The translations under genes were made by a program, and so were the position numbers. From positions 2,419 through 38,314 of the forward strand of contig DHUO01000006.1 of assembly GCA_002409215.1 (NCBI GenBank): DNA of 35,896 nucleotides, in the 5' to 3' direction. The notes beneath the pieces are model-generated. The model saw nothing but the letters and a program-made list of their open reading frames with translations. It made no database searches and had not been told where the DNA came from. This DNA is from Candidatus Dojkabacteria bacterium UBA5232. Lineage in GTDB: Bacteria; Patescibacteriota; Dojkabacteria; SC72. The stretch's first letter is position 1. Every line of letters begins with the position of its first letter. Below, in pieces: positions 530 through 6,947 of the stretch.

Positions 530-1465
530 ATGCATATGAATAAAGAAATATATGATATCGCAATAATTGGTTCAGGACCTGCAGGATTAAGTGCTAGTAT
601 CTATGCAAGTAGATATAAATTAACAAACATTGTATTTGGTAAAGTATCCGGTGGAACCATAACAGAGGGGCATAAGATATGTAACTATCCAGGGTATGAA
701 GATATTTCAGGAATGGAATTAGGTATGAAGATGTTTAATCATGCTAAGAAGGAAGGCGGGCAAACTTCAACAGAGAGTATTGTTGATATTAAGAAAGAAG
801 GAGATGTTTTCAAGTTACTGACAGATACCAACAAGGAGTATTTTAGCAAGACATTGTTACTTGCAACAGGTACAGAGCGAAATGAGTTAGCTTTAGCTAG
901 TGGAGGTAGGTATTTAGGTAAAGGTCTTTCATATTGTGCTACATGTGATGGTATGTTTTTCAGAGGGAAGAGGGTTGCTGTTGTTGGTGGTAGTAGTTCT
1001 GCAACGATGTCTGCTGTTATGCTTTCTGATATTGCAGAGAAGGTATACATTATATACCGAGGGGAGGAGTTAAGGGGAGAGCCTGCTTGGGCAGAGCAAG
1101 CAAAGTCTACAGAGAATGTTGAGGTGATATACAGTACTAATGTAAAAGAGTTGTTTGGAGAGGACCGATTAGAGGGTGTGAAGCTTTCCCTCCCTTACAA
1201 AGGCTCTGAGGAGCTCAAAATTGATGGGCTTTTTGTTGAAATTGGCTCTCAGCCTAATATTGCACTTGCTAATGAACTTGGTGTAGAGGTTGATGATTCT
1301 AACTATATTATTGTAGATAAGGAACAGAAAACAAATGTTGAGGGTGTTTGGAGTGCAGGGGACTGTACAACGAACTCTAATCAATTCAAACAGGCTGTGG
1401 TCGCTGCTGGTGAAGGAGCTGTAGCTGCAAGCTCCATATATAGATATCTTAAAAGCCTTACCTAG
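530..1465 (+). CDS. trxB: thioredoxin-disulfide reductase
   Basis: 311-aa ORF with FAD motif GSGPAG, redox-active CATC (YCATCDG), a second dinucleotide-binding motif GGSSSA and C-terminal AGDCT. An alternative ATG lies at 536. Confidence 0.9.
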   Translation: MHMNKEIYDIAIIGSGPAGLSASIYASRYKLTNIVFGKVSGGTITEGHKICNYPGYEDISGMELGMKMFNHAKKEGGQTSTESIVDIKKEGDVFKLLTDTNKEYFSKTLLLATGTERNELALASGGRYLGKGLSYCATCDGMFFRGKRVAVVGGSSSATMSAVMLSDIAEKVYIIYRGEELRGEPAWAEQAKSTENVEVIYSTNVKELFGEDRLEGVKLSLPYKGSEELKIDGLFVEIGSQPNIALANELGVEVDDSNYIIVDKEQKTNVEGVWSAGDCTTNSNQFKQAVVAAGEGAVAASSIYRYLKSLT

Positions 1466-2821: not shown

Positions 2822-4906
2822 ATGCCCGATAAAAAAAGTATTCCTGTAAGTAGAAAAAAGACTCCTTCTGTTAAGAAAAGAGATGGTAGAGTTGTGAGAT
2901 TTAGTAAAGAGAGGATAGTTAGAGGTATATTTAAGGCTGCTGAGAGTGTTGGTGGAAAAGATAGGCAGAGAGCTGAGGAGATAGCAGATGAGGTTGTTAA
3001 AAGAATTAAGAAGAAGTATGGGAATAAGGATGTCATTAAGACAGAAAAGATTGCAGAGATTGTTTCTGAAACCTTAAAGGATATGGGACATGGGAAGACC
3101 TCTATTGCTTTTGATCTTTTTGTTAGTTTGAAGAATGAGATTAAGAATATTAAATCGTTGATTGATGCTAATACTTTAGTTAAGGATTATATTGATAAGC
3201 TGGATTGGCAAGTTAATGAAAATAGTAATATGGCCTACTCTTGGCAAGGGCTGAATAATTACATTTCATCTTCTGTTCAAGCAAACTATTGGTTGCATAG
3301 TATATATCCAAAGGAGATTTCTAATGGGAATATAAATAAGGATTTCCATATTCATGATTTAGGTATGTTAGCTACATACTGTTGTGGTTGGAGTTTGGAG
3401 GATTTGCTTCTAAAAGGTTTTACAGGTGTTCCGGGTAAGATTTCTTCAGCACCTGCTAAGCATTTTAGCACTGCATTGGGACAATGTGTAAACTTCTTAT
3501 ATACATTGCAACATGAGGCTGCAGGAGCTCAAGCTTTTTCGAGTTTTGATACTTTTCTTGCTCCTTTTGTAAGGTATGACAAGCTTTCTTACAAAGAGGT
3601 TAAACAGAAGATGCAAGAGTTTATCTACAATATGAATGTTCCAACTAGAGTTGGTTGTCAAATACCTTTTACAAATATAACAATGGACTTGATTCCTTCG
3701 GGTCAGTTAGCTGAACAGGGTGTGATAATTGGTGGGCAGGTGCAGAAAGAGAAGTATAAGGATTTTCAGAAAGAGATGGGGATGATTAATAAGGCATTTT
3801 GTGAAATTATGATGGAGGGTGATGCACAGGGAAGACTTTTCTCTTTCCCTATTCCAACATATAACTTAACTAAAGATTTTGATTGGGATAATCCAGACTA
3901 CAAACCAATTTGGGAGATGACTGCTAAGTACGGTATTCCATATTTTTCTAACTTCATTAATTCGGATATGAGTCCTGATGATGCTAGAAGTATGTGTTGT
4001 AGGTTGAGGTTGGATAATAGAGAGTTGAGAAAGAGAGGTGGTGGTTTGTTTGGTGCAAATCCTCTAACAGGTAGTATTGGTGTAGTGACAATAAACTTGC
4101 CTAGGATAGGATATGTTGCAAAGAATAAAAGAGAGTATTTTAAGATACTGAATAAGCAGATGGATTTGGCAAAGAAGAGTTTGATGATTAAGCGAAAGTT
4201 TGTTGAAGGATATATGGAGAAGGGTCTTTATCCATACTCTCGATACTATTTGGCAGATATTAAGAAAAGGTTTGGTGAGTATTACAAAAATCATTTTAAT
4301 ACGATTGGAATAATTGGACTTAATGAATCGTTGATGAATTTCTTTAAGAGTAAGGAGAAAGGTATTACCTCTGTGGAAGGAAGGGAGTTTGGTGTTGAGA
4401 TTATGCAACATATGAGGGAGAGATTAATGACATATCAACAGAAAACAGATCAGCTGTTTAATCTTGAGGCTACTCCTGGTGAGGGTGCTACATACAAATT
4501 TGCTAAGGCAGATAAGAAGAAGTTTGGAGATGACATTATTACAGCATCGGATGTAGCTATTCATGAGTGTGAGGATGCAGTACCCTACTATACTAATAGT
4601 TCTCAGATTCCCGTTGGGTATACGGAGGATATTTTTGAGGCGTTGGATCTTCAAGATGATTTTCAATGTTTGTATACAGGAGGGACTGTTCAACATGTGT
4701 ATATTGGTGAGAGAGTGAGTTCTGTTAATGCTACAAAGAATCTTGTTAGAAAGATTGCTGAGAATTACAGACTCCCCTACTTCTCTATTACTCCGACATT
4801 TAGTGTTTGTCCAAAGCATGGATATATTGCAGGTGAGCATCAGTACTGTCCTAAGTGTGATTGTGAGGTTGGGTATAGGGAGGGAATGTTATTTGAAGCT
4901 AAATAG
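2822..4906 (+). CDS. nrdD: anaerobic ribonucleoside-triphosphate reductase, catalytic body lacking the glycyl-radical C-terminus
   Basis: 694-aa ORF with an N-terminal ATP-cone (KRDGRVVRFSKERIV), class III RNR core motifs (SMCCRLRL, NLEATPGE) and the C-terminal Zn site CPKHGY...CPKC. It stops at TAG 4904-4906 before any RxxGY glycyl-radical motif. Confidence 0.9.
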   Translation: MPDKKSIPVSRKKTPSVKKRDGRVVRFSKERIVRGIFKAAESVGGKDRQRAEEIADEVVKRIKKKYGNKDVIKTEKIAEIVSETLKDMGHGKTSIAFDLFVSLKNEIKNIKSLIDANTLVKDYIDKLDWQVNENSNMAYSWQGLNNYISSSVQANYWLHSIYPKEISNGNINKDFHIHDLGMLATYCCGWSLEDLLLKGFTGVPGKISSAPAKHFSTALGQCVNFLYTLQHEAAGAQAFSSFDTFLAPFVRYDKLSYKEVKQKMQEFIYNMNVPTRVGCQIPFTNITMDLIPSGQLAEQGVIIGGQVQKEKYKDFQKEMGMINKAFCEIMMEGDAQGRLFSFPIPTYNLTKDFDWDNPDYKPIWEMTAKYGIPYFSNFINSDMSPDDARSMCCRLRLDNRELRKRGGGLFGANPLTGSIGVVTINLPRIGYVAKNKREYFKILNKQMDLAKKSLMIKRKFVEGYMEKGLYPYSRYYLADIKKRFGEYYKNHFNTIGIIGLNESLMNFFKSKEKGITSVEGREFGVEIMQHMRERLMTYQQKTDQLFNLEATPGEGATYKFAKADKKKFGDDIITASDVAIHECEDAVPYYTNSSQIPVGYTEDIFEALDLQDDFQCLYTGGTVQHVYIGERVSSVNATKNLVRKIAENYRLPYFSITPTFSVCPKHGYIAGEHQYCPKCDCEVGYREGMLFEAK

Positions 4907-4939
4907 TATCTTAATATTAAATTAATTAATTCAAAATAT

Positions 4940-5071
4940 ATGAAGAAGGTAAAAAGACAAAAATGTGAGGTGTATTCAAGAGTTGTTGGATATATTAGAC
5001 CGATTTCTCAATGGAATGTTGGTAAGCAGGCTGAGTGGAAGGATAGAAAGATGTTTAAAGTTTCAGCTTAA
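4940..5071 (+). CDS. stand-alone NrdD glycyl-radical segment (43 codons), in frame with nrdD
   Basis: Not in the ORF track because it is too short. It translates as MKKVKRQKCEVYSRVVGYIRPISQWNVGKQAEWKDRKMFKVSA*. EVYSRVVGY..P...WN.GK..E..DRK is the conserved NrdD C-terminal glycyl-radical signature. It shares the frame of 2822 and ends 2 nt before nrdG. Confidence 0.7.
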   Translation: MKKVKRQKCEVYSRVVGYIRPISQWNVGKQAEWKDRKMFKVSA

Positions 5072-5073
5072 AT

Positions 5074-5769
5074 ATGGTTAAAATTGCTGGGCTTGAGAGG
5101 GTTTCTTTAATAGATTATCCTGAGAAAATATCTGCCATCATTTTTACACACGGTTGTAATTTGAGGTGTTCTTTTTGTCATAATCCAGAGCTTGTTTTGG
5201 TTGATTTTGATGGTAATTTGGCTGTTAAAGAGAGTGGGCTTTTTGAGTATTTAGAGGGAAGGAAGGGGAAGATTGATGCTGTTGTTATTACAGGAGGAGA
5301 ACCTTTGTTGCATAAAGATATTGGGAAGTTAATTAAGAAGATTAAGGATATTGGATATTTGGTTAAGCTTGATAGTAATGGTTTTTTTCCTAAAGAGCTA
5401 AAGAGATTGATATCTAAAGGGTTGATTGATTATATAGCGATGGATGTGAAGTGGCCTGAGGATAGTTATGTTAAGTATAGTGGTGATGTTAAGGCTGTAG
5501 AGAAGATTAAGGATAGTATTTCTATTATTGAAAATAGTGGTATTGCTCATGAGTTTAGAACTACTGTTGTGAAGGGAATTCATGAGATAGAGGATGTTGA
5601 AGAAATTGTTAAAATGTTACCAGAAGATTCTCTTTTTTATATTCAAAATTTTAGGGCTGGGAAAACGATTAATCCTACATTAGATGGTTCTAACTCTTTT
5701 ACAGAGAAGGAGCTAAAAGATATTCTTAAAGTAGCCAGAAAACATGTTAAGAACTCCTATGTTAGATAG
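5074..5769 (+). CDS. nrdG: anaerobic ribonucleotide reductase activating protein (radical SAM)
   Basis: 231-aa ORF with the CxxxCxxC radical-SAM cluster motif (GCNLRCSFCHNPE) and the SAM-binding motif ITGGEPL. It lies immediately downstream of nrdD. Confidence 0.85.
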   Translation: MVKIAGLERVSLIDYPEKISAIIFTHGCNLRCSFCHNPELVLVDFDGNLAVKESGLFEYLEGRKGKIDAVVITGGEPLLHKDIGKLIKKIKDIGYLVKLDSNGFFPKELKRLISKGLIDYIAMDVKWPEDSYVKYSGDVKAVEKIKDSISIIENSGIAHEFRTTVVKGIHEIEDVEEIVKMLPEDSLFYIQNFRAGKTINPTLDGSNSFTEKELKDILKVARKHVKNSYVR

Positions 5770-6584: not shown

Positions 6585-6947
6585 ATGGCTGAAGAAAAAA
6601 GTGCTAAAAGAGTCTATAAATTAGACGATATAAAGTTCAATGAGGAGAATAAAACCATGGCTATTGTCTCATGGATTTCTATCGTAGGTCTCATTATGTT
6701 CTTTGTTGAAAAGAAGGATCTTTTTGTAAGATATATTGGTGCTCAAATAATAGTCGTTAATATTGCAGCTATTCTTTTGTCTTTGATTGTGATGGTAATA
6801 CCTTTACTTCGATGGTTACTTGCTCCAATGCTTCCTTTAGCTACCCTTGTTATAATTATCATCGGAATGGTTAAAACATCAAAAGGAGAGAGATTTGATA
6901 TTCCATTAATCTCTGAATATGCACTTAAACTAATGAGTGCTGTTTAG
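6585..6947 (+). CDS. small multi-pass membrane protein (DUF4870-like)
   Basis: 120-aa ORF with 2-3 hydrophobic helices (MAIVSWISIVGLIMFFV, IIVVNIAAILLSLIVMVIPLL, LATLVIIIIGMV). It is divergent from lexA and followed by a terminator. Confidence 0.5.
   Translation: MAEEKSAKRVYKLDDIKFNEENKTMAIVSWISIVGLIMFFVEKKDLFVRYIGAQIIVVNIAAILLSLIVMVIPLLRWLLAPMLPLATLVIIIIGMVKTSKGERFDIPLISEYALKLMSAV

Follow-up and report, generated by a model that had tools for sequence, protein, structure and literature searches.

The anaerobic, class III ribonucleotide reductase (RNR) encoded in a 35,896-nt stretch of DNA from Candidatus Dojkabacteria bacterium UBA5232 (contig DHUO01000006.1) is very probably a natural two-subunit enzyme. 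The whole stretch is called the window below, and all coordinates of the locus are positions in it. The glycyl-radical loop RVxGY is absent from the polypeptide encoded by nrdD, here called the body, and is located instead on a separate open reading frame (ORF) at 4940-5071, which encodes a peptide of 43 amino acid residues. The two-subunit reading is based on the presence of two genes that are separately translated, co-conserved and complementary in domain content. Comparison of the sequences indicates that the split is an old, conserved and widespread two-gene design and not a broken gene. The parts of the locus are as follows.

2822-4906, + strand: nrdD body, 694 residues plus TAG; matches PF13597, PF03477 and NF006126, without the glycyl-radical loop
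3992-4003, + strand: MCCR finger loop of the nrdD body, residues 391-394, placed by the motif positions
4808-4858, + strand: zinc-ribbon ligand block C663-x2-H666 ... C676-x2-C679 (CPKH...CPKC), kept on the body
4859-4903, + strand: clade-specific C-terminal tail of the body, D-CEVGYREGMLFEAK, net acidic
4904-4906, + strand: body stop codon TAG
4907-4939, + strand: A+T-rich intergenic spacer of 33 nt, without a Shine-Dalgarno motif or stable RNA structure
4940-5071, + strand: small radical-subunit gene, 43 residues; matches PF13597 at positions 530-562 of 562 (E=6e-10)
5074-5769, + strand: nrdG, radical S-adenosylmethionine activase; matches TIGR02495 (NrdG2) and Radical_SAM, 2-nt gap after the small ORF stop

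The original prediction had placed the end of the body at the TAG codon, the radical motif on the 43-codon ORF and nrdG 2 nt further on, and these coordinates were confirmed. The nrdD ORF terminates in ...YCPKCDCEVGYREGMLFEAK at this TAG, and the sequence before the stop reads ...CPKH-x9-CPKCDCEVGYREGMLFEAK. The small ORF shares the reading frame of the body, from which one stop separates it, and its product is MKKVKRQKCEVYSRVVGYIRPISQWNVGKQAEWKDRKMFKVSA. This peptide has a basic N-terminus MKKVKRQK, a conserved Cys9, the finger EVYSRVVG17Y and a C-terminal helix; the codon of Gly17 is at 4988-4990. The junction locus is identical in five independent metagenome assemblies, with the exact 694-residue product on five contigs and 321 nt that are 100% identical. 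An assembly artefact, against which the original prediction had advised a check, is ruled out by this identity.

The body matches the Pfam NRDD profile (PF13597) at positions 1-528 of 562 (E=1e-182) and the NCBIfam model NF006126 at positions 4-653 of 684, with a score of 994.6 bits (cutoff 548). Positions 654-684 of the latter model are missing from the body, which ends 15 residues past Cys679, while the 43-residue peptide matches it at positions 649-683. The body thus contains an ATP-cone, an α/β barrel with the MCCR finger loop and a zinc ribbon, and it ends about five residues short of the position at which the glycyl-radical loop begins in single-chain NrdDs. NRDD and ATP-cone are the only Pfam domains found in the two products. 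Residues Cys663, His666, Cys676 and Cys679 align to the C-x2-H...C-x2-C block of Thermotoga maritima NrdD (4COI/4U3E), and these ligands are invariant in 36 Dojkabacteria loci. The zinc ribbon, with its predicted metal ligands, therefore appears to be present on the body. Cys9 of the small peptide was considered as a fourth zinc ligand and rejected, because the T. maritima protein has the C/H/C/C block without that Cys and some intact relatives lack it too. With the barrel match, the MCCR finger loop, the zinc ribbon and an NrdG in the operon all present, the body belongs to the NrdD family of the NF006126/PRK08270 lineage; the MGCR/MCCR classification of the finger-loop motif, in which MCCR is the double-cysteine type, is taken from PMC9669993. 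The nrdG product matches TIGR02495 at 207.3 bits (cutoff 131.15), and Pfam and NCBIfam matches bear out the earlier statement that nrdR and nrdG are both intact.

It is important to compare this locus with those of related organisms. All of the 120 closest database homologues of the body (73-96% identity, labelled Dojkabacteria or WS6 where named) share its tail and lack the RVxGY motif. Their C-terminus reads ...CPxCDxExGY[KR][ED]GMxFxxx in every case, and their lengths are 679-699 residues, 657 residues in one case, or about 1000-1092 residues with intein insertions. The consensus of the body tail is D-x-E-x-G-Y-[KR]-[ED]-G-M-x-F. A genome scan with one genome per species gave 80 loci, and the 3' end of the body was present in 74 of them. 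These 74 informative loci comprise 66 split and 8 intact forms. Each of the 66 split bodies is accompanied by a downstream ORF of 40-69 residues with C-E-V-Y-S-R-V-V-G-[YWF], where the search pattern for the radical motif included the Trp and Phe variants RVVGW and RVVGF. The split with the same truncation point, tail and downstream radical ORF spans 43-99% identity. Intact relatives read CPxC-(2-15 aa)-CEVYSRVVGY, while split bodies always end past the zinc ribbon.

The small radical ORFs show some variation of their own. Several small ORFs of Patescibacteria and Halanaerobiales have Trp or Phe instead of Tyr after the radical Gly, with RVVGW in six loci and RVVGF in three. Many Dojkabacteria radical peptides have a Cys-rich C-terminal extension (DCGC, CATC, CGCN, CSSC, GCTTC, NCCCNN), which the peptide of the window (…KVSA) does not have. 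In a Patescibacteria contig (locus L051), the body tail and a 62-residue radical ORF occur twice, at 4460-4648 and 6727-6915 of that contig, about 2.3 kb apart; a locally duplicated 3' portion of the operon and an assembly repeat are both possible.

The distribution of the split is broad. Split forms occur in bacteria of the candidate phyla radiation (CPR), in DPANN archaea, in Bacillota and in Proteobacteria. Stand-alone homologues of the radical peptide with 39-76 residues form 93 clusters. In a scan of 1.84 billion cluster representatives, the nearest 150 NrdD clusters were classified by their C-terminus as 70 split and 58 intact, the rest being unclassifiable, and some of these split calls may be proteins that end at contig ends. 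It seems that about one in two of the nearest NrdD clusters has the split design. When plasmid and chromid records were searched by tblastn with a proteobacterial small ORF, 162 records matched, among them those of Ralstonia (132), Bradyrhizobium, Cupriavidus and Paracoccus. A rough neighbour-joining tree requires about 24 changes between the split and intact states, compared with about 42 for shuffled labels, and the split clade of the window adjoins an intact clade reading CPKC-TIKQP-CEVYSRVVGY. A single origin of the split was considered and not retained: the state is clustered but not cleanly monophyletic on this crude tree, the limits being the tree quality and the contig-cut proteins.

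The way in which the small ORF is placed relative to the body bears directly on how it is translated. Its frame relative to the body is 0, 1 or 2 in 23, 19 and 24 of the 66 split loci, respectively, and the body stop codons are TAA in 42, TAG in 17 and TGA in 7. Body and small ORF overlap in some loci and are up to about 800 nt apart in others. Dojkabacteria have gaps of about 16-33 nt, and their small ORF always starts with ATG and usually with Met-Lys-Lys. In Halanaerobium saccharolyticum and Halothermothrix the gene order is body, nrdG, small ORF. Three loci have start/stop overlaps of the type ATGA or TAATG between genes, and in several outgroups (Pacearchaeota, other Patescibacteria, Halanaerobiales) a GGAGG-type motif lies a few nt 5' of the small-ORF start. 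A Shine-Dalgarno tetramer (GGAG, GAGG or AGGA within 20 nt before the start) was found in none of the 27 ORFs of the window with at least 150 residues. In the host, translation seems to start on A+T-rich leaders and without Shine-Dalgarno pairing, and because none of these long ORFs has such a motif, a small ORF without one is normal for this organism. The folding z-score of the spacer and leader is +2.39, that is, the region is less structured than its shuffles. No terminator-like site was found between the genes, and an Rfam scan of the window gave three tRNAs only, with no match at the junction.

Selection on the two segments was analysed in the 36 Dojkabacteria loci, in which synonymous sites are saturated (proportion of synonymous differences, pS, about 0.72-0.75). 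For the small ORF, the nonsynonymous proportion (pN) in the 34-codon core is 0.097 against a pS of 0.72, which corresponds to a dN/dS of roughly 0.04. In the 11-codon tail of the body, pN is 0.21 against a saturated pS of 0.75; G, Y, G and F never vary, and 35 of the 36 loci have the M. Both the body tail and the start MKKVxRQR of the small ORF show conservation in their amino acid sequence, which means that they are translated. This conservation, together with the varied frames, spacing, stops and gene order, leaves practically no room for bypassing, readthrough, a mini-intron or a recent disruption. The original prediction had proposed a search of relatives for the split and for purifying selection; the 66 split loci among 74 and the low dN/dS gave a positive answer, and the comparative data strongly support its suggestion of a truly two-piece class III RNR.

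The locus also contains a short direct repeat. The sequence TGTGAGGT occurs at 4862-4869 and at 4964-4971, and the original prediction regarded the 102 nt bracketed by these copies as an insert in nrdD. The two copies and their distance of 102 nt were reproduced, but their meaning as marks of an insert was not. A direct repeat of at least 8 nt was present in 1220 of 2000 shuffles of positions 4850-5071 (61%). The longest word common to the body tail and the small-ORF start is 5-10 nt in 35 related loci, with a sequence and spacing that vary by locus. At the tail position of Cys-Glu-Val, most relatives carry A/S/I-E-V/R/L instead, and the 8-nt repeat arises from the coincidence that Cys-Glu-Val is encoded by both segments in this sub-lineage. 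Since the repeat is at chance level and is not conserved in relatives, it does not point to an insert with a target-site duplication, and this candidate is ruled out. The in-frame 102-nt insert bracketed by a repeat is a chance feature of this lineage. A decayed partial duplication, in which ExGY of the tail would echo CEVYSRVVGY, is possible as an ancient origin, the motif being too short to test.

Other explanations of the locus must also be considered. The two ORFs could be expressed as one continuous NrdD chain by recoding, either by bypassing between the TGTGAGGT copies, by readthrough of the TAG codon with a 34-residue insertion, or by removal of a mini-intron. The arrangement of the window invites this idea, since the small ORF is in frame with the body, a single TAG stands between them, and identical Cys-Glu-Val 8-mers bracket exactly 102 nt. 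However, the in-frame layout is found in only 23 of 66 split loci, all three frames and all three stop codons are used, the spacing varies, and nrdG intervenes in Halanaerobiales. The repeat is no more than expected by chance and is not shared by relatives, 12 codons separate the supposed take-off from the stop, the region forms no hairpin (z-score +2.39), and no Rfam family matches it. The sequences that would be skipped are the tail xExGYxxGMxF and the start MKKVxRQR; their amino acid sequences are conserved, with synonymous sites saturated. Recoding is thus extremely improbable, and the bypassing and readthrough put forward in the original prediction do not hold. The same is true of its suggestion of a recent inactivating insertion, in which nrdD would be a pseudogene and the 43-codon ORF a leftover. 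The truncation does take out a motif that a canonical NrdD cannot work without, and the 8-nt repeat superficially resembles a target-site duplication. However, the same truncation, tail and intact radical ORF recur across phyla at identities between 43% and 99%, the split itself being conserved at 43-96%, the small ORF has a dN/dS of about 0.04, and nrdG and nrdR are intact. Neither sibling genomes with an uninterrupted gene nor decay of nrdG were found in the relatives, and we give this explanation practically no credence.

A different possibility is that the two products are joined after translation into a single chain, by intein-like trans-splicing or another ligation. The NrdD family is unusually rich in inteins, and the conserved segment of the small ORF opens with an invariant Cys, as does the sequence after a C-intein. 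However, the approximately 15 residues past the zinc ribbon and the approximately 8 residues before the Cys are far too few for an intein fold, there is no His-Asn before Cys9, and no intein domain was detected in the Pfam scan. Many intact relatives (KPCEVYSR) carry the same Cys, and because of this Cys9 is ancestral and not specific to the split form. Post-translational joining is very improbable. It is also improbable, though to a lesser degree, that the small protein is not an obligate subunit and acts as a regulator or decoy substrate of NrdG or as a radical store, with the body having another radical source or function. Its tight coupling to nrdG, with a 2-nt gap in the window and a position after nrdG in Halanaerobiales, would agree with such a role, as would one Micrarchaeota locus that has the split pair beside an intact NrdD. 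However, apart from the radical loop the body has all the catalytic hallmarks, and the neighbouring genes encode no other source of a radical; truncated body and small ORF co-occur in 66 of 66 cases, and the peptide keeps the whole conserved loop together with the helix that, in single-chain enzymes, packs on the barrel.

The two-subunit reading was also compared with a structural model, as the original prediction had recommended. The AlphaFold2 input was a single chain, the natural in-frame read-through with the stop replaced by X, and the alignment contained 90 sequences including intact relatives. The model has a mean predicted local distance difference test score (pLDDT) of 89.5 and a predicted template modelling score (pTM) of 0.83, with the body confident to about residue 680. 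The peptide core (residues 711-740 in the fused numbering) has a pLDDT of 90-94, and the body tail, the linker and the first 8 peptide residues have a pLDDT of about 46-57. The modelled core consists of strands 716-720 and 725-727 and a helix 733-741, and the radical Gly (723 in the fused numbering) is located in the turn between the strands. In the model, this β-hairpin with the Gly at its tip has the canonical radical-finger geometry. A Foldseek search with the model matches the NrdD structures of P. copri (8P23), S. thermophilus (9DCA), T. maritima (4U3E) and T4 (1H79). The mean net charge is -3.0 for the body tail and +3.2 for the peptide N-terminus, with opposite signs in 51 of 62 pairs. 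The polarity is reversed in Elusimicrobia and Sideroxydans loci, the signs being swapped in the proteobacterial clade. The charge complementarity of the two sequences might be an aid to docking.

These data allow us to propose a mechanism for the two-subunit enzyme. The small ORF would be translated separately from its own ATG on a common nrdR-nrdD-small-nrdG transcript, and the 43-residue peptide would supply the radical loop with Gly17 and the C-terminal helix. The peptide probably docks non-covalently in the barrel at the canonical position of the glycyl-radical domain, where its basic N-terminus may pair with the acidic body tail. NrdG would then take the Cα hydrogen of Gly17, and the radical would pass to the finger-loop cysteine, with catalysis as in other MCCR-type class III RNRs. 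Since the small ORF and nrdG are translationally coupled, activation by NrdG possibly takes place off the enzyme. Cleavage by oxygen at the radical glycine would cost only a cheap replaceable peptide and not the 80-kDa enzyme. We suggest tentatively that the peptide (40-70 residues) is a consumable, exchangeable radical cofactor subunit, which would be activated by NrdG, latched into the barrel by charge and swapped after cleavage by oxygen.

Several points weigh against the two-subunit reading and its extensions. The evidence here that the peptide is made, binds the body and carries the radical is indirect. The chain modelled by AlphaFold2 was artificially tethered, with the natural linker and the stop as X, and because the alignment held intact homologues, the confident placement of the loop is partly family knowledge. 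The model is of low confidence in the tail and in the peptide N-terminus, and the proposed electrostatic zipper therefore comes from charge counts only. The exchangeable spare-part function is drawn from the analogy with GrcA and is doubtful to that extent. Finally, the Cupriavidus necator genetics described below is a secondary citation.

It is useful to compare the split NrdD with known systems. The canonical enzymes, consisting of a single-chain NrdD and NrdG (T4 1H79, E. coli, Prevotella copri 8P23, Thermotoga maritima 4U3E/4COI, S. thermophilus 9DCA), have in common with the locus of the window the ATP-cone, the barrel, the finger-loop cysteines, the zinc ribbon, the RVxGY motif and the activase. 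However, the chain of every solved or characterised enzyme has the radical loop as its own C-terminus, while in the window it belongs to a separate 43-residue product. To our knowledge, the characterised glycyl radical enzymes all carry the radical glycine on the catalytic chain, and the only known stand-alone radical domain is GrcA.

GrcA (YfiD) is a small stand-alone homologue of the glycyl-radical domain of a glycyl radical enzyme, and the peptide of the window, which covers the 33 last NRDD positions, is likewise. By analogy, the activation of GrcA by the cognate activase and its insertion into the barrel of a partner deficient in the loop would apply to the peptide as well. The differences are that GrcA has 127 residues and belongs to the Gly_radical family of pyruvate formate-lyase (PFL) type, while the peptide matches NRDD only, and that GrcA coexists with a complete PFL and only rescues the oxygen-cleaved enzyme. 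The split NrdD body is without the loop in 66 of 66 loci, so that the peptide would be obligate. According to a 2026 review (PMC13450708), formate lyases are the sole glycyl radical enzyme class with spare-part proteins.

A split RNR has been described in Pseudomonas aeruginosa, namely NrdJa/NrdJb (Crona et al. 2015, PMC4520616). As in the nrdD locus, the catalytic subunit is encoded by two neighbouring genes of one operon that are divided at a fixed site, a functionally essential element is located on the C-terminal piece, and the split is conserved across a clade. However, this is a B12-dependent class II enzyme, and NrdJb has 229 residues with the reducing cysteines and a zinc finger, not the radical. 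The nrdD locus has adjacent co-oriented genes, a fixed conserved split site and single-chain forms elsewhere, which are the marks of a split RNR. The likeness to T4 gene 60 and the mitochondrial byps is superficial, consisting of identical codons that flank a non-coding gap in this window. Bypassing in T4 gene 60 involves a stop directly after the take-off site and a hairpin; the window has neither, its gap is twice that of T4, and nothing of this arrangement is conserved in relatives.

No description of a split NrdD was found in the full-text literature searched, where a closed-access mention is possible, and reviews from 2015 and 2026 do not mention it. All solved NrdD structures that were found are single chains. 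The split NrdD is thus unrecognised in the literature searched, yet it is not rare. The databases already contain both pieces, under generic or uninformative names such as "truncated" NrdD, "hypothetical protein" and "oxidoreductase". Because of such names, annotation and metabolic reconstruction could misjudge many anaerobes and CPR and DPANN organisms.

A split NrdD is also encoded in Cupriavidus necator H16. In the RefSeq record of Cupriavidus necator H16 plasmid pHG1, a 676-residue "ribonucleoside triphosphate reductase" is followed by 142 nt, a 66-residue coding sequence named nrdD, and nrdG, which overlaps the end of the 66-residue coding sequence. The three products are WP_011154155, WP_011154154 and WP_011154153, in that order. 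The original pHG1 annotation of the 66-residue protein was "oxidoreductase". A passage of PMC2864759, citing Siedow 1999, states that nrdDG is needed for complete denitrification in C. necator H16 and that a mutant without pHG1 shows very poor growth on nitrate. A split NrdD evidently works in vivo, as judged by this secondary citation for C. necator, which gives indirect evidence that both polypeptides are required for activity. In the published gene list of C. metallidurans CH34, where the locus is on the megaplasmid, NrdDG is given as Rmet_5137 and Rmet_5139, and the gene between them is passed over. The radical subunit has been overlooked in the model organisms C. metallidurans CH34 and C. 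necator H16.

A class III RNR that always has its radical loop on a mini-protein of its own would represent a quaternary design new for an essential enzyme. Because body and loop can be handled separately, the access of the activase to the buried loop and the survival of transient oxygen by anaerobes become testable, and Cupriavidus necator H16 and Halanaerobium are culturable, genetically tractable hosts of a split NrdD. If the peptide is indeed exchangeable, it would be a built-in repair for a large, unrecognised branch of class III RNRs (CPR, DPANN, Halanaerobiales, denitrifying Proteobacteria including Cupriavidus necator) and would offer a naturally occurring system in which to study the access of activases to the buried glycine.

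Some further features of this NrdD lineage were observed. The Micrarchaeota metagenome-assembled genome contig JACRGE010000044 (4-4821) contains a split NrdD, nrdG and then an intact NrdD paralogue without an ATP-cone; the split body ends in CPHQGNGESK, and its 80-residue radical ORF is located at 1973-2215. Inteins are abundant in the lineage, with close homologues of approximately 1000-1092 residues, some of which have LAGLIDADG and intein-splicing Pfam domains. Many NrdD cluster representatives have 1000-1879 residues and match the query in 2-4 separate stretches; the copy in the window has no intein. Some related NrdD representatives end in a thioredoxin- or glutaredoxin-like sequence (…APTLVV…), which suggests a fusion to a reductant domain.

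Upstream of the nrdD body lies the regulator gene, for which the features are as follows.

2335-2350, + strand: NrdR-box-like palindrome ACACAATATATTGTAT, adjoining nrdR upstream, with 1 mismatch to ACACWATATATWGTGT
2357-2803, + strand: nrdR, 148 residues according to the gene callers; Zn_ribbon_NrdR and ATP-cone

The sequence ACACWATATATWGTGT is what we take to be the NrdR-box consensus, and the other matches to it in the window are three in number, each with 3 mismatches. The likely start of nrdR is ATG at 2357, compared with TTG at 2345 in the mechanical ORF list. A thioredoxin-reductase-like gene with a Pyr_redox_2 domain is located at about 530-1465 (+ strand), approximately 900 nt upstream of nrdR, and a CTP_transf_like gene on the opposite strand (1651-2139) lies between the two. 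The upstream thioredoxin-reductase-like gene and the MCCR loop fit an NrdD that could use the thioredoxin system as well as formate.

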